Shown: positions 862 to 56,219, counted from the first letter of the stretch. The stretch is DNA of 64,000 nt from an uncultured Gammaproteobacteria bacterium (GCA_964576435.1 CAZNUP010000002.1:183182-247181), one strand, 5' to 3'. The notes: generated by a model from the sequence alone, not told the origin. Program-made: numbers and translations.

Positions 862-1449
862 ATGACCTTTCCAAAGCAGATTCAAAATTTGATTGAAGCT
901 TTTGAAAGGCTTCCCGGTGTTGGGCCTAAAACGGCTGAACGCTTAGCTTTTTATTTGCTTCATGTTCCTGACAGTGAGATTAAGAAATTTTCTGATTCCG
1001 TTTCTAATCTAAAAGAGGGAATTGTTCTTTGTGAGGAATGTAAGAATATATCTTCAGCTACAATTTGTGAAATTTGTTCTGACAACACACGAGATAAAGA
1101 TTCCATTTGTGTGGTTGAAGGGCCTTTAGATGTCTTTAGTTTAGAAAGATCTGGCACTTATCACGGGCTCTATCATGTTCTTCATGGGGTCATAAATCCA
1201 CTAAATAATATTGGACCGGATGAACTTTATATATCTGACCTTTTTAATAGGGAAACACTAGAGATAATTCTTGCTTTAAATCCTACAATGGAAGGAGAAG
1301 CCACGGCTCTTTATATTAAAGACAAGATGAAAGACAAAGGAATTAAAATTACTCGTCTTGGGGTTGGACTTCCCATTGGCGGAGACATGCAGTATGCTGA
1401 CTCCACAACTTTAACACGAGCTATGGAGGGCAGAAGATCATATGAGTGA
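862..1449 (+). CDS. recR: recombination protein RecR
   Basis: RLPGVGPKTAERLAFYLL helix-hairpin-helix motif, a C4 zinc finger (CEECKNISSATICEICSD) and a Toprim region. Confidence 0.93.
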   Translation: MTFPKQIQNLIEAFERLPGVGPKTAERLAFYLLHVPDSEIKKFSDSVSNLKEGIVLCEECKNISSATICEICSDNTRDKDSICVVEGPLDVFSLERSGTYHGLYHVLHGVINPLNNIGPDELYISDLFNRETLEIILALNPTMEGEATALYIKDKMKDKGIKITRLGVGLPIGGDMQYADSTTLTRAMEGRRSYE

Positions 1450-1909
1450 CCAAGGAAAATTAGGTGGCTTTACAGACGAAGTTGGAGAACTTTTTAAAGA
1501 TGCCGGCAAGGCAACAGTTCGAGAGGTTAAAGATATGGGGAAAATCGCTAAGGCACAGATTACTGGTAATTATAGTGATAGTTCTTCAAATAAACCACAG
1601 ACTGAGATTAAACCTGATGATAAGAAAGCAGGCAAAAAAGATCCAATTACTGGGAAAACTCCTCCAACCAAACAACAGCTTAATGATTTGAAACAGCAAA
1701 CGGCTCAACTCCAAATGGCACAACTTAAAAAGGTGCGGGCAGAGCTTGAAAAACAAAGACTTAAAGTTAGTGGACAACAACAAACTGGGTCGCCTCAAGT
1801 TGGGCCAGAAGTTAAAGAGGAGAACAAGAAACCCAAAGATGACGCTGTCCAAAAGACACTTAAGAGTTCAAAAAGCACAGGGGAGTTCAAAGGCTTGATT
1901 GGTGGGTGA
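1442..1909 (+). CDS. hypothetical Lys/Gln-rich low-complexity protein
   Basis: 155-aa ORF that overlaps the recR stop by 8 nt. It is K/Q-rich with a coiled-coil-like composition. Confidence 0.45.
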   Translation: MSDQGKLGGFTDEVGELFKDAGKATVREVKDMGKIAKAQITGNYSDSSSNKPQTEIKPDDKKAGKKDPITGKTPPTKQQLNDLKQQTAQLQMAQLKKVRAELEKQRLKVSGQQQTGSPQVGPEVKEENKKPKDDAVQKTLKSSKSTGEFKGLIGG

Positions 1910-2142
1910 TTTTTGGTATAGTTCAGAGTATGTTCAGTGGAATTAAAGAAAAATTACTACCTTGGTTTATTGGAGGGTCTATGGGTGCTTTATTGGGTGC
2001 TACAGGTGCAGTTGTTTTAGAAAATGCTCTTAACACACCCAATCACGATTTGTCTGTTTTTTCTGCAATGGTTTTTGGCTTAATCTTGGCAAATAAGGTT
2101 GAAAGGCGATATAATGCTAATAGAATAGCCATAACAGAATAA
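1906..2142 (+). CDS. hypothetical small membrane protein
   Basis: 78-aa ORF with a hydrophobic core (LPWFIGGSMGALLGATGAVVL). It overlaps the upstream stop by 4 nt. Confidence 0.4.
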   Translation: MIFGIVQSMFSGIKEKLLPWFIGGSMGALLGATGAVVLENALNTPNHDLSVFSAMVFGLILANKVERRYNANRIAITE

Positions 2143-8872: not shown

Positions 8873-9709
8873 GTGGTCATGATAATAAATGGTGTGGAAA
8901 TTGGTCACTCGGATGATGTCGTGGGAGGAAGCGATCCGGTATTGGCAAAAAAGTTTTTTCCTTTTTTGGGAGATTCTTTTATTGAACATATAGCCGTAGG
9001 GGGAATTAATAACGTCTTAGAATATTTTAATAGAGCACACGATTTGGGATTTGAAGTTGGAGTACATGGACGACTGGGTGGTTTAGGGTTTACATCCGTT
9101 CCTGAGTTAGCGGTTACAGCTGCTGCCCAGTTGACGATTGCAAAAACTTCTGAACTTATTGAGCAACTTACTGATGCTAAATATATATTGGTGCATGATC
9201 CAGAATCTCGCAAGAAAGGTACTCTCCAATCTGTTTCAACTGATACTATTCGGCGAAAATTTACAGTTGAAAATCATGGCGGAATTGCCCCGGCTATAGA
9301 ATCCGCTAATAATTTACGAACTGGTGTGACTTTTGATTGGGTTCATCAGTTTGAAGATTTAGGTGGTATGGGGAGGTTTCCAGATAGTTGGACGGAAACT
9401 GTTGATTCTTTCGAAGAACTAAGTAAAGCAGAACCTGTGTTTCTCAATGAGCATGTCCCTATTGGCTTTAATAAAGATTCCTTGCCTGAGGAAGTTATAT
9501 TTAATGACGATTGTATGTCATATGTCCGTCAAATGCGTCAGAGACTTGCTGGGTATGGTCTTCGTTCCAAAAGTATCGTTTTGGAGTGTCAGTATGGTTT
9601 AGGATTTACTTACTTGGTTAACAGACCGTTTGCAGGTGCTTTTTCTGGTGATAGGATTAAAGCGGTTGAGATTAAATTTGACCGATTGGTTAGCACCGGT
9701 TTTATTTAA
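8873..9709 (+). CDS. hypothetical protein
   Basis: 278-aa ORF divergent from the upstream gene. No motif was recognised and the start is uncertain. Confidence 0.4.
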   Translation: MVMIINGVEIGHSDDVVGGSDPVLAKKFFPFLGDSFIEHIAVGGINNVLEYFNRAHDLGFEVGVHGRLGGLGFTSVPELAVTAAAQLTIAKTSELIEQLTDAKYILVHDPESRKKGTLQSVSTDTIRRKFTVENHGGIAPAIESANNLRTGVTFDWVHQFEDLGGMGRFPDSWTETVDSFEELSKAEPVFLNEHVPIGFNKDSLPEEVIFNDDCMSYVRQMRQRLAGYGLRSKSIVLECQYGLGFTYLVNRPFAGAFSGDRIKAVEIKFDRLVSTGFI

Positions 9710-26273: not shown

Positions 26274-26969
26274 TTACATCACAGAGATTAATCGGTTTTT
26301 GATGACGATTTTCCCCTCCATAGCTAACTTTTTCAGCTCACGACTAGTCGTTTCTCTCGTTAAACCTGTCAGAGTGGCGATGTCTTCATGAGTGAATGGG
26401 TAATTAAGTGTTAATTTGTTGTCTTTATTGGTTCCGAAGTGTTTACCTAGAAAATATAGGATGCCTAATGTGCGTTCGCTGGCGTTTCTTGAGGCTAAAA
26501 ACTCAATACGTGTTACTAAACCATCTATCCCAGATAATAACCTGCGTGATAGTTCAAAAACAAGCTCGGGATCAGTTTTTAATAAATTAATGACCTCGTC
26601 TTTAGGGGCCAAATATGTTTTCAAGGGTGTAAATGCCTGGTAATAATACCTATTCGGTAGGTCATTTACTGCCCAAAAAAGTGGAAAAAACGATTTAGGT
26701 TTAAAAAAGTGGAGAGTTAATTCTTGACCTGTCTGTGTGAAAATATATTGCCGTACAAACCCTTGTTCTATAAAGTAAACACCTGGAGGATTTGTGCCCG
26801 ATTTCAGAATGGTGTCACCCTTTTTAAATGCCACTTGTTTTTGATTTTTGAAAAATAATTCTAATTTTGATTTTTGGGTTTGATCTGGCATATGCGAATT
26901 ATATCCTAATAGTGAATTAAACTTATCCAAGGAATAGTAGTTGGGAAGATTCGGAGCGCATGTCTTCAT
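26274..26969 (-). CDS. Crp/Fnr family transcriptional regulator
   Basis: cNMP-binding beta-roll plus a C-terminal HTH (HEDIATLTGLTRETTSRELKKL). Confidence 0.8.
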   Translation of the reverse strand: MKTCAPNLPNYYSLDKFNSLLGYNSHMPDQTQKSKLELFFKNQKQVAFKKGDTILKSGTNPPGVYFIEQGFVRQYIFTQTGQELTLHFFKPKSFFPLFWAVNDLPNRYYYQAFTPLKTYLAPKDEVINLLKTDPELVFELSRRLLSGIDGLVTRIEFLASRNASERTLGILYFLGKHFGTNKDNKLTLNYPFTHEDIATLTGLTRETTSRELKKLAMEGKIVIKNRLISVM

Positions 26970-26998: not shown

Positions 26999-27682
26999 CT
27001 AGTGTAGGTGAAGGTATCTTAAGATGTAAACTCTTTCACTTTTTTGAGGATTACCGTCTGCGAGAAATAGATCAAAAATTCTGTCGTTTGTTAAAAGAGG
27101 AGGGCGGATTTCGAACTTGGAGAGGTGTGTGTCTAAAGACCCGGAGAGGTCAGACAAAAAAGTGCTGAAGGGGTGTTCGATGCTGTTAACTAAAGAGTTA
27201 TATAATTCTGGCGATGGAACAAATGCAAAGGCATCTATATCTGAGTTTTCTGTAGGTTGATTCCCTTGGTCTCTTGCTGCTAGTAGGCCGATTGAGCCAG
27301 CACCATAAAGTGCGATCGTATTTTTGAACTCTCTTGGCATAAATTTTTCGAAAGTTCGCGCTAGTGTATCTAGCCAAAAATTTCCGAGATCAGTCCATTG
27401 GTAATAGTTGGCTAATTCAATTCGTCTTGGTTGCATTACAGCTTGGTCACCAATAAATTTTGGATATTCTATTCGGGTGTAATCAATTGATGCCTCTAAG
27501 ATTTTTACTTTTGTGCAGCTAGGGTAATGAGCTATTTGAATTGGGGATCTTTGAAAAAAGTGAGTTTCTATATGCCCTGCTAATTGTGTATCGCCATGTG
27601 GGTAGTTTGTGTTTGCTGTGCAATCAAAGGCATTTCTGAAGTTTTCTGGGTTGTAAAGTTCGCCTGATTTAATCCATGGCAT
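26999..27682 (-). CDS. nucleotidyltransferase-domain protein (Pol-beta superfamily) with N-terminal extension
   Basis: YGAGSIGLLAARD...SDIDAF matches the GS-x(n)-DxD signature of minimal nucleotidyltransferases, but it sits at about residue 150 of 227. Confidence 0.5.
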   Translation of the reverse strand: MPWIKSGELYNPENFRNAFDCTANTNYPHGDTQLAGHIETHFFQRSPIQIAHYPSCTKVKILEASIDYTRIEYPKFIGDQAVMQPRRIELANYYQWTDLGNFWLDTLARTFEKFMPREFKNTIALYGAGSIGLLAARDQGNQPTENSDIDAFAFVPSPELYNSLVNSIEHPFSTFLSDLSGSLDTHLSKFEIRPPLLTNDRIFDLFLADGNPQKSERVYILRYLHLH

Positions 27683-27746
27683 CCAGGGAACTATAACATT
27701 TACCTATAGTATTGTAAATAGGAATAATTAGTCTTATAATGTATAT

Positions 27747-28769
27747 ATGGCGGTCACACGTAGTCATGAGATAAATAGAAGGCAGCTCTTGACATGGGCT
27801 GCTATAAGTGGGGCTGTTTTGAGTGGAGTAGCATTAGCTAGGGCTGTGAACATAGATCGAATAGAGTTTTCTTCTGAACCTATAGCGACAAACTTTGATT
27901 TACCGCGACAACTTATGCCTCAGCAACTAGAATTTCCTTTACCCTCACAATTGTTCGTTGGAAATGAAGGAATGCCTGAATACATCCAAGATACTGCCAG
28001 GATGATTGACATTAACCCTGCAAGACTTATGGAGGTTAAACCTATTTTAAATATTCCTCCTGAACTAGTTCCGAAATTTTACACTGAAGGCCCAGAAGTG
28101 CTTCCCTTAAGGACCTTAAAAGATTTGACGTTTTTAGCCGTAAATGGAGCATTTGCGTTTGGTGAAGATATTGCCGAAGCAATAGTAAATACATATAAAG
28201 CCAGTATCCCTGCCGTAAAAAAGACTCAAAATGGGGTTGATTATCTTGCTCCTAATTTCCCTCAACTTGTTGAGGGTCTTGGGCAACGAGCCGAAGAAAT
28301 CTCTCCAGACGGAAAAACATATTTTGTGCGTTATAAAGCTGATCCTGAAAGGCCTGTGGCTAATTGGCGAGCAGTTGACACTGAGATTCTAGGTGTATAT
28401 GTAGACGCCGTGGACACGCAAGTAGAAGCATTGGCTAGATTTTATGCTGAAGCCGGAGTGCCTAAACCTGATTGGATTATCCCTATAGGATCAGTACCTA
28501 CTGGGAATGTGGCAGGCAGGCCAATTTTTTCTGACTCTGATTTTGCTGCTATTTGGAAAGATAAGGATAGCTTTGTTGCTGGTGTTAAATCATTAAATGC
28601 ATTAAGTACAAATAAATCTAACAAGTTTAGGGATTTGATACGTGAAATGTATGAGCCGCATTTAAGGTCAATCGATGGATTTAAAATACCATCTGGAAAT
28701 CATAATGCCTTAGTTTATCAAGCTGATAAGATTGTCAATCTCTATAAATGGTTGACTTTAGGACAGTAG
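27747..28769 (+). CDS. hypothetical exported protein with Tat-like signal peptide
   Basis: N-terminal INRRQLLTWAAISGAVLSGVALARAV has a twin-arginine motif, a hydrophobic core and AxA. GC content looks slightly raised. Confidence 0.5.
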   Translation: MAVTRSHEINRRQLLTWAAISGAVLSGVALARAVNIDRIEFSSEPIATNFDLPRQLMPQQLEFPLPSQLFVGNEGMPEYIQDTARMIDINPARLMEVKPILNIPPELVPKFYTEGPEVLPLRTLKDLTFLAVNGAFAFGEDIAEAIVNTYKASIPAVKKTQNGVDYLAPNFPQLVEGLGQRAEEISPDGKTYFVRYKADPERPVANWRAVDTEILGVYVDAVDTQVEALARFYAEAGVPKPDWIIPIGSVPTGNVAGRPIFSDSDFAAIWKDKDSFVAGVKSLNALSTNKSNKFRDLIREMYEPHLRSIDGFKIPSGNHNALVYQADKIVNLYKWLTLGQ

Positions 28770-28831
28770 ACTTTATTAAACTCGGCGTTTATTGTTTTTC
28801 AAAACTATTTACAAATTCCTCTATTTTAAAG

Positions 28832-28961
28832 ATATAATCAGAAAATGCTTCAAGTAGGAATGCGATTTACGCTTTCCCACAAAATAAATTCCTCCAGTTT
28901 GCATTCGATTTCCAGCTTCCAGAACCGCGAAAGGAAAGCTTCATAACCGACAGATAATTAG
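28832..28961 (+). ncRNA. candidate small RNA / cis-regulatory leader element, copy A (own -10 TATAAT at 28833-28838)
   Basis: This ~130-nt block is about 85% identical to 30222..30354. Both copies begin with tataatc.ga.aatgctt and end with gata(a)attag. Confidence 0.35.
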
Positions 28962-29080
28962 TCATGTAGTCCACTTAAAGTCAGCTGGGGTAGAGATATA
29001 AGTTAACGATTAGTGACATGCAACAAGACGTGAACAGAGTAAACGCAAAAATGTTATTTGTGATTTATACAATCCTATAG

Positions 29081-29086
29081 TATAAT
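29081..29086 (+). promoter_or_regulatory. -10 box (TATAAT) within conserved atcctatagtataataat motif, 9 nt upstream of ATG 29096 (near-leaderless)
   Basis: An identical 18-nt motif occurs at 45547..45564. Confidence 0.4.
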
Positions 29087-29095
29087 AATCATTCT

Positions 29096-30205
29096 ATGGA
29101 AAAAATTTCGAGAAGAGATTTTTTGAAAATAGCTGCTACAGTATTTGAAGGGGCTTTAGTGCTCCCGTTAGTAGCTTGTGGACCCTCACTTAACAATTCT
29201 GAATGTCCCGCGAATTTTACAGATGGGCTAAATGAGTTCATGGCTGATTTGGCGAAATCTAAAAAAATAGGGCTGCCCGAACTGAAAAAAAGGATATCGA
29301 ATCAATTTCCTTCGCAAAACTCTGTATTACTTATGGGTGAATCGCATCAAGATGAAAAGCAAGAAGCAATTGCTAAAGAAATTATTGGCGGACTGATATC
29401 TTCAAAAAAAATTGGGCAAATGTTTTACGAAACTGATCTTTTCTGGCAACACGAGACTATTGATCCATCAGTTAACACTAATGAGTTTAATGCTTGGTCC
29501 TTTCAGGAAATACAGAATATTAATCCGTCTTCTGAGAATGGAGTAGTTTTATATGCAGGTTTTATGCATGTTTACCCGGAATTGCATCAAAAATGGGCAT
29601 ATAATGAAACTGACTCTTTTTATGAATTGACGCAAAAGCCAGAATATAAGACTTTATGGGAACTCTGTAAAAGTAGAGGCGTTAATCCGATGACTTTTTT
29701 AATGATGCGAAGTGACGGAGTATATGTGGATGCTGAACTGGATATCTTAAGAGGAATCCAAGCAGTTGGTTTGCCTGAATTTGAGCGAATTATTGACGCA
29801 AGGAATAGCTTTGAATGCGGTGCTTTATTAGTTGAACAAGATAAGATTTTTGACCTTGGTAATGAAGTTTATATCTATCTTTCGCCAAATATGCATTCGA
29901 AATATGGGGAAGGCCAATTATTGGGAGCGGCCGCTGATATTTCCCGAGCTTTATATAGTCCCTTTTCACCACTTCCAAATATTGATTTAAGGAAATTAAG
30001 ATTTCACAGTGCCATATATATTGGGGGTAGGGATGGATATGGATACCATCAGAATGTTGATTATGTTTTACACCTTATAGACGATGATTATGGCTATGAC
30101 TTTATTTTTCCTTCGAGTGAAAGAGCAACTATGATTTTGGATATTTTCAATATCTTGCAACGGGAATACACGCAGAAGAACATTCGCATAGATCGACCTC
30201 GTTAA
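29096..30205 (+). CDS. Tat-signal lipoprotein, ChaN/TraB/TIKI-superfamily-like (GESH motif)
   Basis: MEKISRRDFLKIAATVFEGALVLPLVAC carries a canonical SRRxFLK twin-arginine motif and an L-V-A-C lipobox. LLMGESHQDEKQ resembles the GExH motif of ChaN-like proteins. Confidence 0.55.
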   Translation: MEKISRRDFLKIAATVFEGALVLPLVACGPSLNNSECPANFTDGLNEFMADLAKSKKIGLPELKKRISNQFPSQNSVLLMGESHQDEKQEAIAKEIIGGLISSKKIGQMFYETDLFWQHETIDPSVNTNEFNAWSFQEIQNINPSSENGVVLYAGFMHVYPELHQKWAYNETDSFYELTQKPEYKTLWELCKSRGVNPMTFLMMRSDGVYVDAELDILRGIQAVGLPEFERIIDARNSFECGALLVEQDKIFDLGNEVYIYLSPNMHSKYGEGQLLGAAADISRALYSPFSPLPNIDLRKLRFHSAIYIGGRDGYGYHQNVDYVLHLIDDDYGYDFIFPSSERATMILDIFNILQREYTQKNIRIDRPR

Positions 30206-30221
30206 TCATACTTATTTGGCT

Positions 30222-30354
30222 GTATAATCTGAGAATGCTTAAGGTAGGAATGCGATTTACGCTTTCCCACAAAATAGATTTCTCCAATTTACGTTCGACT
30301 TCCAACTTCCGAAACCCGCTAAAGAGAGGCTAATAATTGAAAGAGATAAATTAG
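30222..30354 (+). ncRNA. candidate small RNA / cis-regulatory leader element, copy B (own -10 TATAAT at 30223-30228)
   Basis: Paralogous to 28832..28961. It sits in the intergenic leader of the 30403 gene. Confidence 0.35.
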
Positions 30355-30390
30355 GTCGAATTGTGCAGTCACAAGTGTCATCGTTAGCGA

Positions 30391-30396
30391 TATAAT
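30391..30396 (+). promoter_or_regulatory. -10 box (TATAAT) 6 nt upstream of ATG 30403 (leaderless arrangement)
   Basis: gcgatataattgttttATG: TATAAT at 30391-30396 with no Shine-Dalgarno between it and the ATG. Confidence 0.35.
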
Positions 30397-30402
30397 TGTT
30401 TT

Positions 30403-31023
30403 ATGTTGAATCAAGATTTGCCGCAGCCTAAAGAGGGTGAGACTAAAGAAGTTCCGATTATTAAAGATCGTGAGCTTTGTAGTAAGGTTATCGATTTTTT
30501 AGATAAAATGACTGTTATTCTTGTAGATAGTGTTGATGCTGAGGTTAAAATGGGTTCAGAAAATCAACCAGAAATACCAACAAAGTTTGAAACAGTTCTT
30601 GTTGAAGGCAAAGGTTTGAATATACGGGTTGGAGTAGATAGAGATGAAGATATTGCCTGGGATATTCATTTTGGCATTCGTGGAAAAAATAGTCGCAAAG
30701 CAGCAGAGGCAGAAGGTATTACAGTCTATGAGACTTTTCAAACCATGATAGATGATTTGGGAAACCTTAAAACTGTCGTACAAAATAATCCGCAAATAGA
30801 ACCAAGAATGATTGTCAGCCGTACTACAAATGGAACGATGTTTGATTTTGCAAAACGTATTGGCATTATAAAAGGTGTATTGCCATCAGAATATAGGTTC
30901 GAAGGAGACCAAGGAGAAATGGATCCATTGGTTTTTGACAAAGATAGACTGTTTGATCTGATGTATAAAGTGGACAAGAATGTAAGTTATAGAGATAATC
31001 TAAAAGTTATTTTGGGAAAGTGA
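30403..31023 (+). CDS. hypothetical protein
   Basis: 206-aa ORF, acidic, no motif recognised. Confidence 0.45.
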   Translation: MLNQDLPQPKEGETKEVPIIKDRELCSKVIDFLDKMTVILVDSVDAEVKMGSENQPEIPTKFETVLVEGKGLNIRVGVDRDEDIAWDIHFGIRGKNSRKAAEAEGITVYETFQTMIDDLGNLKTVVQNNPQIEPRMIVSRTTNGTMFDFAKRIGIIKGVLPSEYRFEGDQGEMDPLVFDKDRLFDLMYKVDKNVSYRDNLKVILGK

Positions 31024-45403: not shown

Positions 45404-45406
45404 ATG

Positions 45407-45490
45407 TGCCGGGGGAGGGAGTCGAACCCTCACAGACATTACATCTAATAGTTTTTGAGACTATCGCGTATACCATTCCGCCACCTCGGC
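45407..45490 (-). tRNA. tRNA-Leu (anticodon CAA), long variable arm
   Basis: The reverse complement reads GCCGAGG-T-GGCGGAATGG...ATAGT-CTCAAAA-ACTAT...GAGGGTTCGACTCCCTC-CCCCGGC-A. It shows 7-bp acceptor pairing with one mismatch, a GTTCGACTC T-loop and a CAA anticodon loop. CCA is not encoded. Confidence 0.8.
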
Positions 45491-45555
45491 ATTTGTTTTA
45501 TTATACCTCAGATTTATATCAACCTGATAAGACTTGTCTATTTATGATCCTATAG

Positions 45556-54714: not shown

Positions 54715-55500
54715 TTAATTTTCCTCTGGCATTTCATCTTGATGGAGTTTTTCTGCCTTTTTGAATGATGCTTCGTCTTCGTCGTCACCACTATCTTCAT
54801 CTGTTGCTTCTTTTTCAGTGTCGTCGACATGATTGTCGTCTCTGACAAAACTTAGATAGTCGGTTGAGCCACTTGGGAAAGAGGGAGTGTTTTTGAATTT
54901 CTTAGATCTAACCCTTTCTCTTATGAAAAGGACTAGGCTACCTTTTCCAACGGATCTAACAAAAGCTTCGTATTCGTTTCCACCTTTAATTAGAACAAGA
55001 ATTCGGTGTCCTAGGTCGTCTGGGAGGGCACCGAGATAGACTCCATCAGCTCTTTCAGCAAAGATGGTATGTCTTTTGGCTGTCAGACTTACGTGATCGG
55101 TGCATTGTAAGGTTAGAAGCACTTTTGCAGGTGCGACATTAACTAGAGTGATCATCTTAGTTTTGCCTGGTTCTTCAAGGAAGCTAATGGTTGGGGACTG
55201 GGGACGGTTTGGTGTTTCATCAGTTTTGCCTTTTTGTTTAGTTTTAGGAGCACTTGTTTCATTAGCACGAAGGAGGTTTTTAGTAGCGATTGGATCGTAT
55301 TTATTAACTTTCAATACCTCTTTAAAGTATGTGGCCGCCTTTTTGTTGTTGCCAAGCTCTAAATATGCCCTACCTAATCTATTTAGACAGTCGAGATCAG
55401 TGGGATCATCTTTTAGGATTTCTGTATTTAAATCGACAGCCCTTTGCCAATTTTGGGCAAGAGCCGCGTCAATTGCTGCCTGTGTTTTTTGTTCGAACAT
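54715..55500 (-). CDS. TPR-repeat protein with acidic C-terminal tail
   Basis: N-terminal TPR units (LNRLGRAYLELGNNKKAATYFKEVLKVNKYDP) and a DE-rich C-terminus. Confidence 0.45.
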   Translation of the reverse strand: MFEQKTQAAIDAALAQNWQRAVDLNTEILKDDPTDLDCLNRLGRAYLELGNNKKAATYFKEVLKVNKYDPIATKNLLRANETSAPKTKQKGKTDETPNRPQSPTISFLEEPGKTKMITLVNVAPAKVLLTLQCTDHVSLTAKRHTIFAERADGVYLGALPDDLGHRILVLIKGGNEYEAFVRSVGKGSLVLFIRERVRSKKFKNTPSFPSGSTDYLSFVRDDNHVDDTEKEATDEDSGDDEDEASFKKAEKLHQDEMPEEN

Positions 55501-55532
55501 TAGTTGACAATTATATAGTAAAATACCTGTAA

Positions 55533-56219
55533 ATGTCAGGACATTCTAAATGGTCCACTATTAAAAGGCAAAAGGGGGTTACTGACGCTAAAAGGGGTAA
55601 CCTCTTTACAAAGCTTTCAAACGCTATAACAATAGCAGTTCGTGAGGGTGGTGGCGGAGATCCAAGTTCAAACTTCAGATTAAGACTTGCCATGGATAAA
55701 GCCCGTGAGGCTAATATGCCTAAAGAGAATATTCAGAGGGCAATTGATAAAGGAACTGGTAAGGGTGGAGCAGTTGAGCTGTCAACAGCGATTTATGAAG
55801 GCTTTGCTCCTGGGAATGTGGCAGTTATTGTCGAAACTATTACTGACAATACAAATAGGACAGGAGGGGAAATTAGAACTATCTTTGATAAGAATGGTGG
55901 CAGGATTGCTTCAGTTAACTATATGTTTACCAGGGTTGGGGAGATTGAAGTAACTGGAGATGAAGTATTTGAAAAAGCACTGGAGGCTGGGGCAGAAGAT
56001 GTTGAAGAAAATATTGTTTATACAAGACCAGAAGATCTTCACAAAGTGAAAGAAAAACTTGAAGCCTCAGGACTTACTGTCACACAAGCAGGATTAATTT
56101 TCAAACCCAATAAAGAGACCATGATTACACTTGATGATGAAAATGGTGAAAAAGTGATGTCCTTTGTAGAAAAAATTGAAGAAATGGATGATGTACAAAA
56201 TGTATTTGTAAATATTTAA
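55533..56219 (+). CDS. yebC: YebC/PmpR-family transcriptional regulator
   Basis: MSGHSKWSTIKRQKGVTDAKRGNLFTKLSNAITIAVREGG is the DUF28 signature. Confidence 0.9.
   Translation: MSGHSKWSTIKRQKGVTDAKRGNLFTKLSNAITIAVREGGGGDPSSNFRLRLAMDKAREANMPKENIQRAIDKGTGKGGAVELSTAIYEGFAPGNVAVIVETITDNTNRTGGEIRTIFDKNGGRIASVNYMFTRVGEIEVTGDEVFEKALEAGAEDVEENIVYTRPEDLHKVKEKLEASGLTVTQAGLIFKPNKETMITLDDENGEKVMSFVEKIEEMDDVQNVFVNI

Follow-up and report, generated by a model that had tools for sequence, protein, structure and literature searches.

Four lineage-specific genes upstream of ychF, probably native to a Microgenomates-type bacterium, include a predicted twin-arginine lipoprotein with TIKI/ChaN-like motifs

The stretch of DNA analysed here (64,000 nucleotides, GCA_964576435.1 CAZNUP010000002.1:183182-247181, hereafter the window) was deposited as part of an uncultured Gammaproteobacteria bacterium. 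At positions 26999 to 31023 it contains four genes, which we denote A to D, bounded on one side by a gene for a Crp/Fnr-type regulator (recognised in Pfam by its cNMP_binding and HTH_Crp_2 domains) and on the other by ychF. Gene A (27682 down to 26999, (-) strand) is an open reading frame (ORF) of 227 aa, and genes B (27747-28769), C (29096-30205) and D (30403-31023), all on the (+) strand, are ORFs of 340, 369 and 206 aa, respectively. A and B are transcribed away from each other from a compact divergent promoter pair at 27690-27740, located by promoter scan and in the sequence. Two copies of a duplicated element, both on the (+) strand, lie at 28833-28954, after B, and at 30223-30344, after C. 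An earlier note on this DNA, made from the raw sequence, had described a small accessory island here. Its four ORFs were all recovered with exactly the coordinates and lengths it gave, and the motifs it quoted were found: NRRQLL in B; SRRDFLK, LVAC and LLMGESHQDEKQ in C; and GS...DID in A. The position of four non-core, lineage-specific genes between the Crp/Fnr-type regulator and ychF was likewise borne out by Pfam.

The four full-length proteins matched no family in Pfam or NCBIfam, and nothing was found for them in PHROGs, PADLOC or the PDB sequences. A and B are strict ORFans, each matching only itself among 5.8 billion protein clusters. Gene D had no relative in viral or Joint Genome Institute (JGI) metagenome contigs. 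For C, a single homolog was found (P0002, 55% identity), whose gene lies on a contig of 1,971 bp in an unrelated sequencing run, and an exhaustive HMMER profile search with the alignment of C and P0002 over 1.84 billion representatives returned nothing further. On that contig (L003), the C homolog is followed on the opposite strand, at 1375-1970 (-), by an 89-aa and 109-aa pair that by eye resembles a type II toxin-antitoxin system, with a RelE/ParE-like protein and a ribbon-helix-helix-type antitoxin. Scans of viral contigs revealed no viral relatives for any of A to D; a phage or defence origin was rejected, with PHROGs, PADLOC and these scans all negative. No paralogs of A to D were found within the window, and no pair among the proteins of the segment exceeded z = 2.1 in Smith-Waterman comparisons against shuffled sequences.

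All four genes carry the same type of start signal as other genes of the window. A Shine-Dalgarno-like motif was detected at only ~10% of the 82 window genes. The arrangement TATAAT-N5-9-ATG occurs at 16 sites, 11 of which stand at the start of genes with 128 codons or more, B, C and D among them; one further site is the promoter of a tRNA-Leu, and two belong to the duplicated element, one in each copy, where they open frames of 33 and 32 codons. In shuffled sequence, 1.4 such sites had an ORF of at least 30 codons. The promoter of A reads TTTACA-17-TATAGT, with a TGnTATAGT box, and ends 7 nt before the ATG, while the promoter of B faces the other way, the two -35 hexamers overlapping on opposite strands at 27712-27718. 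Both A and B appear to be leaderless. The promoter of C carries an extended CCTATAGTATAAT motif that is also common to several core-gene promoters, and D starts from TATAAT-N6-ATG. The stop codon of D lies 6 nt before the ATG of ychF with no promoter between them, so D does not look like an independent island gene and is probably transcribed with its neighbours, as the first gene of a D-ychF-rpsF-ssb-rpsR unit. At the other end, the probable start of the Crp/Fnr-type regulator is an ATG at 26891 (-) with a TATAAT-N6 ahead of it, for a protein of 205 aa; the longest ORF would start at 26969 and give 231 aa. The shorter form places a separate promoter before the regulator, so that co-transcription with A is not necessary, and an operon of A and the regulator gene is weakened as a candidate by this apparent leaderless start.

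The source genome was absent from the collection of species representatives, and its position was judged by comparison of YchF. The best matches, at 65% identity, belong to two metagenome-assembled genomes (MAGs) deposited as Gammaproteobacteria, and the next, at 51-57%, to Levyibacteriota, Woesebacteria, Roizmanbacteria and other Patescibacteria. As the best YchF matches are MAGs of the candidate phyla radiation (CPR), the window belongs to a Microgenomates-type CPR lineage that has been little sampled. Several of the MAGs nearest in YchF, single-stranded DNA-binding protein (SSB) and ribosomal protein S18, among them L004, L005, L008 and L009, are recorded as "uncultured Gammaproteobacteria bacterium", and these records are probably taxonomic mislabels.

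The nearest long contig, L005, has pyrD and ychF-rpsF-ssb-rpsR linked as in the window, with a pyrD-ychF interval of 5.5 kb that is filled by eight genes unrelated to A to D, among them msrA, msrB and one for a ZIP transporter. In the relative with the nearest YchF (L004, 65%), a 563-aa large serine recombinase is encoded directly upstream of ychF (1054-2745), so that a mobile element occupies the slot in that genome; small helix-turn-helix (HTH) or excisionase-like ORFs precede this recombinase. A, B, C, D and the regulator were encoded at none of 80 ychF loci, where YchF identity to the window reaches 65% at most. The pyrD-ychF interval is a variable slot. Because the relatives are so distant, no event at this slot can be dated.

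Such a slot would suit a horizontally acquired accessory island brought by a phage, a plasmid or another mobile element. All four proteins are ORFans, the slot differs in every relative and holds a serine recombinase in L004, and the tetranucleotide distance at 27-31 kb is the highest locally, yet with z = 1.58. The earlier note had pointed in this direction, describing a GC content slightly above the surroundings and a possibly acquired signature. The composition does not bear this out. In 1-kb bins the segment has a GC content of 0.36-0.40 within a window range of 0.34-0.43. Comparison of the segment with its flanks, as the note had proposed, gave host-like values: the per-gene GC, GC at third codon positions (GC3) and synonymous-codon likelihood of A to D deviate by |z| ≤ 1.1 from the other 78 genes, with the values of C and D falling below the mean. 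No mobility genes (integrase included), tRNA or flanking direct repeats were found in or beside 26.2-31.0 kb. Furthermore, A to D carry the host-specific leaderless promoter layout, including the shared CCTATAGTATAAT motif, D is fused to the ychF transcription unit, and the viral contigs, PHROGs and PADLOC gave no matches. The host-like composition together with the native expression signals is evidence against recent import, and we consider an acquired island very unlikely.

We therefore favour, with a probability of about 0.6, the reading that A to D are lineage-specific genes that evolve fast, belong natively to a little-sampled CPR bacterium of Microgenomates type and occupy the variable slot between pyrD and ychF-rpsF-ssb-rpsR. 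As part of this reading, the four genes, host-like in every measurable respect, would not have been imported recently as an island, and a leaderless promoter of the host's type would drive each of them. The same reading takes B and C as exported or envelope proteins and the duplicated element as a pair of small leaderless units, as set out below. It should be noted, as a point against it, that with the closest relatives at 65% in YchF a lineage-specific gene is indistinguishable from an old acquisition followed by amelioration. Taken as a whole the cluster is fairly ordinary, and gene C and the duplicated element are the only parts of it that merit follow-up.

Gene A had been described as an atypical nucleotidyltransferase (NTase) with its motif behind an unknown N-terminal domain, an assignment for which we found no support. 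A does contain a helix-like LDTLARTFEKF followed by YGAGS, 17 residues and SDIDAFAFV, and so resembles Pol-beta-like NTases (e.g., PF01909, NTP_transf_2) in having G-S...D-x-D after a helix-like segment. However, the strict signature hG[GS]x9-13Dh[DE]h is failed by A, whose spacer has 17 residues instead of 9-13, and also by B, which reads IGS-x13-DSDF with D-S-D at the acidic site. No NTase hidden Markov model (HMM) matched A, either as the whole protein or as the motif-bearing segment, even at E ≤ 10, and nothing was found for it in NCBIfam, PADLOC (which includes CD-NTases) or the PDB. The relaxed GS...DxD pattern is present in 9 of the 82 window proteins (11%), C included, compared with 4.7 ± 2.1 in shuffled proteins; its frequency is close to chance, and the pattern is thus non-specific.

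One might still regard A, and perhaps B, as an extremely divergent NTase-fold enzyme with an N-terminal extension that could make a nucleotide signal for the adjacent Crp-type regulator, whose cNMP-binding domain would receive it. The motif-like patterns of the two proteins and the adjacency of A to this regulator fit that picture. The missing HMM and PADLOC matches, the departure from the strict motif and the commonness of the relaxed pattern oppose it, and the regulator seems to be expressed separately, from a promoter and start of its own at 26891. A relationship between A and B through a shared NTase-like C-terminal domain was also considered and rejected, as none was detectable (Smith-Waterman z = -0.65 against shuffles). 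An AlphaFold model of A from its single sequence reached a predicted local distance difference test score (pLDDT) of 34.2 and was unusable. We regard a divergent NTase as a very improbable account of these genes.

The N-termini of B and C are the only ones of twin-arginine (RR) type among the 82 non-overlapping ORFs of the window. That of C (MEKISRRDFLKIAATVFEGALVLPLVAC) contains SRRDFLK, a perfect match to the S/T-R-R-x-F-L-K consensus, followed by an uncharged, moderately hydrophobic h-region (IAATVFEGALVLPLVA) and the lipobox LVAC with Cys28; no other of the 82 ORFs has a lipobox of the form [LVI][ASTVI][GAS]C. P0002, although only 55% identical overall, retains both the twin-arginine motif, as SRREFLK, and the Cys, with LRSC as the lipobox. 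The N-terminus of B (NRRQLLTWAAISGAVLSGVALARA) runs from NRRQLLT through 18 uncharged residues to ALARA, which offers an A-x-A cleavage site, with an Arg in the c-region.

The database models and, for the 64 kb covered, the gene content count against export of B and C by the twin-arginine translocation (Tat) pathway. The Pfam model TAT_signal (PF10518) gave 15.7 bits for C and 12.6 bits for B, both under its cut-off of 22.7, and NCBIfam gave no Tat signal match for either protein. A tblastn search with hand-typed reference queries found no tatA or tatC in the 64-kb window, nor were lgt and lspA, for which no test was made, seen there. Weak TatA/TatC-like tblastn matches at 42.2-42.4 kb were discarded as spurious, as they lie antisense to a real 215-aa gene. 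The earlier note had held that Tat substrates would be surprising in a lineage of this kind. That premise is not supported, since reports of TatA and TatC exist for Microgenomatia, Paceibacteria and Saccharimonadia (PMC9166423) and Tat substrates are therefore not surprising here in principle; a soil Saccharibacterium with Tat has four predicted substrates (PMC6031116).

Given its SRRDFLK and LVAC motifs, with the RR and the Cys kept in its only homolog, C is a credible predicted Tat-type lipoprotein, as the earlier note had proposed, and this is the best-supported part of the reading. For B, the RRQLL motif is present but deviates from the consensus (NRRQLLT), and the TAT_signal score is sub-threshold; its N-terminus looks like a plausible but less typical twin-arginine-like signal peptide and could instead be a signal anchor. 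Tat-dependent lipoproteins have been described in Streptomyces and haloarchaea. C resembles them in its SRRDFLK motif, moderately hydrophobic h-region and lipobox Cys, and differs in coming from a CPR/Microgenomates genome, known here from 64 kb alone, and in the lipobox of its homolog, where LRSC is atypical at position -2.

The mature part of C was compared with ChaN and the TIKI superfamily, to whose motif the earlier note had likened its GESH segment. Three motifs of C, G81-E82-S83-H84, E112 and G155-F-M-H158, are all invariant in P0002. The segment LLMG-E82-S-H84 fits G-E-x-H, the first TIKI motif, and E112 (in QMFYE) follows exactly 28 residues after H84. Active enzymes of the TIKI superfamily have a 2His/2Glu motif plus a basic residue, and the distance from the first His to the second Glu is 28 residues in both Bcr135 (H85/E113) and RRSP (H3902/E3930) (PMC6254334). 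In Escherichia coli YbaP, annotated as TraB family, this spacing is 26. When residues 55-226 were scanned against 24,736 Pfam families, PF04187 (Cofac_haem_bdg; "Tiki superfamily, ChaN") was the only match, with E = 0.068 for C and E = 0.16 for P0002. In a profile comparison with hhalign, the only local match aligned GVVLYAGFMH158VYPE of C with RYVVAVGALH251LYGE of YbaP, which contains the second G-x-x-H motif. A regular expression for the three motifs in this order matched C, P0002 and YbaP; otherwise it matched a single ORF among ~1,600 unrelated ones and a single sequence among 5,000 shuffled versions of C.

None of these scores reaches significance, and the spacing of the motifs also departs from that in YbaP. 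The PF04187 match reached 13.6 bits for C and 12.3 bits for P0002 compared with a gathering score of 27.7, and the hhalign comparison of the C family with YbaP gave E = 0.23, which is not significant. From E112 to H158 there are 46 residues, compared with 184 in YbaP, and no conserved Arg or Lys lies between them. The three-motif expression was written post hoc, with the sequences already seen. PDB sequence searches with C found no ChaN, Ere or TraB chain, and the AlphaFold model of C, built on a two-sequence alignment, had a pLDDT of 37.7 and was unusable; Foldseek hits on it were noise. These points count against a TIKI-like domain. In addition, the PF04187 match covers the GESH region alone (profile positions 7-37), and full-length C matched neither PF04187 nor any other Pfam family. 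Arginines invariant in C and P0002 are found elsewhere, at R219, R236, R284 and R302, and no alignment places them.

We nevertheless lean, by a modest margin over even odds, towards C being a TIKI/ChaN-like domain protein on the strength of its motifs. For the ChaN/TIKI likeness drawn in the earlier note there is independent but weak support: PF04187 is the sole Pfam match of the domain segment, the Glu stands at +28 and the second G-x-x-H aligns with that of YbaP, with all scores below significance. Relative to ChaN (PF04187) and the wider superfamily (TraB/PrgY/GumN, PF01963; erythromycin esterases; TIKI; RRSP), C would share the order G-E-x-H, Glu at +28 and G-x-x-H. ChaN of Campylobacter is a lipoprotein, as C is also predicted to be. 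C differs from these proteins in its low PF04187 score, the short Glu to second His distance, the lack of an identified conserved Arg, ~170 extra C-terminal residues and a Tat-type rather than Sec-type signal, and the likeness is one of sequence motifs.

An alternative is that the RR N-termini are ordinary Sec signals or anchors and that GESH, the Glu and GFMH of C coincide by chance, in which case B and C would be fast-evolving surface proteins of an episymbiont without TIKI-like chemistry. The sub-threshold TAT_signal and PF04187 scores, the empty PDB sequence searches, the lack of tatA and tatC in the window and the off-consensus NRRQLLT of B all agree with this view. It leaves unexplained, however, why S-R-R-x-F-L-K is perfect in C and kept at 55% overall identity, and why PF04187 alone among 24,736 families matches both C and P0002. 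Moreover, the exact +28 Glu and the second G-x-x-H fall outside the region that drives the PF04187 match. We consider this alternative unlikely, and retain the reading of C as a Tat-type lipoprotein with a TIKI/ChaN-like domain.

Under that reading, B and C would be envelope or exported proteins that leave the cytoplasm by way of twin-arginine-type signal peptides. SRRDFLK would direct C to TatAC, if the genome encodes it, and C would cross the membrane folded, possibly already loaded with a metal or cofactor. Lgt and LspA would then lipidate the protein and cleave it at Cys28, so that it stays anchored on the outside of the cell membrane. The mature protein may form a very divergent alpha/beta domain of the TIKI/ChaN/erythromycin-esterase type, in which a site made of Glu82-x-His84, Glu112 and His158 could activate water for peptide or ester hydrolysis or could bind a cofactor, as ChaN binds haem. 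If C is indeed Tat-exported, lipid-anchored and TIKI/ChaN-like, the envelope of CPR episymbionts, of which little is known, would gain a surface protein that hydrolyses a substrate or binds a cofactor, and C would be a concrete Tat substrate in a lineage where Tat has been reported only patchily. Otherwise the value of the analysis is mainly negative and methodological, in that an impression of "GS...DxD" or of an "island" gained from raw sequence is insufficient.

The duplicated noncoding element that the earlier note had seen at this locus was confirmed. Its two copies (28833-28954 and 30223-30344) span 122 nt at 80% identity and share an identical core of 33 nt, where the chance expectation is 0 matches. 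Independent Logan assemblies from three sequencing runs break inside the repeat, indicating that the duplication is a real feature of the organism. Copy 1 begins 64 nt after B, and the stop codon of C is followed at 18 nt by copy 2; they lie ahead of the proximal promoters of C and D, respectively. The repeated module is ~125 nt long, with similarity running from its own -10 box to ~28955 in copy 1 and ~30345 in copy 2. The flanks are no more alike than shuffled sequences, and a larger segmental duplication including the promoter and 5' end of D was rejected. No further copies were found in the window, at the ychF loci, or in metagenome or viral contigs.

Each copy has its own TATAAT followed after 6 nt by an ATG (at 28845 and 30235), and the ATG-initiated frame (MLQVGMRFTLSHKI...) is intact in both, with 33 and 32 codons. 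The copies differ in this frame by 13 non-synonymous and 1 synonymous codon changes, which weakens the small-ORF reading. At the RNA level, the only structure predicted is an invariant 21-nt hairpin, GGAATGCG-ATTTA-CGCTTTCC (as RNA, GGAAUGCG-AUUUA-CGCUUUCC). No terminator and no covariation were found in the element. A known RNA family was rejected, with no Rfam match at the gathering score or at E ≤ 10, and so was a structured RNA, with folding z values of -0.4 to -1.6 and no compensatory pairs on either strand.

Among the differences between the copies, 11 of 19 fall in one codon phase, that of the third positions of frame +2 or its antisense partner, a periodicity of marginal significance. 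In frame +2, 30 of 40 residues are identical, with ~10 synonymous and 10 non-synonymous changes by hand count, and the frame may be a relic coding sequence. As an active coding frame it was rejected, since it lacks a start codon and is interrupted by a stop in copy 2. The antisense frame -1, with a start codon only in copy 1, was rejected as well. A -1 frameshift was also dismissed, with no slippery site seen on inspection.

The two copies are most likely small, independent leaderless transcription units, each for a basic peptide of 32-33 aa or a small RNA (sRNA); for copy 1 the candidates are a small gene without a leader, an sRNA and a leader. They share TATAAT-N6-ATG with bona fide leaderless genes of the window, and differ from known leaderless small ORFs and promoter-proximal sRNAs in having no purifying-selection pattern in the ORF, no terminator, covariation or Rfam match, and no copies outside the locus. 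A bolder proposal joins the element with gene C: the element would be a new, locally duplicated leaderless small gene, for a basic peptide of 32-33 aa or for an sRNA centred on the invariant 21-nt hairpin, that works with the exported B and C, and C would be the first member of a compact branch of the TIKI superfamily, not seen before, whose lipoproteins are exported by Tat in CPR bacteria. We consider this combination quite unlikely.

Beyond the locus, apparent leaderless starts occur throughout the window, for example at 8879, 14060, 22048, 37104, 38383, 45568 and 55500. The last of these belongs to a second compact divergent pair, 54715-55500 (-) and 55533-56219 (+), whose 32-nt gap (55501-55532) holds both -10 boxes. 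This leaderless grammar (TATAAT-N6-9-ATG, with Shine-Dalgarno motifs at ~10% of genes) could improve gene calling in the lineage. In addition, a TATAAT at 45492 (-) adjoins tRNA-Leu(CAA) at 45406-45490, where transcription would start at approximately the mature 5' end, suggesting a leaderless tRNA transcript.

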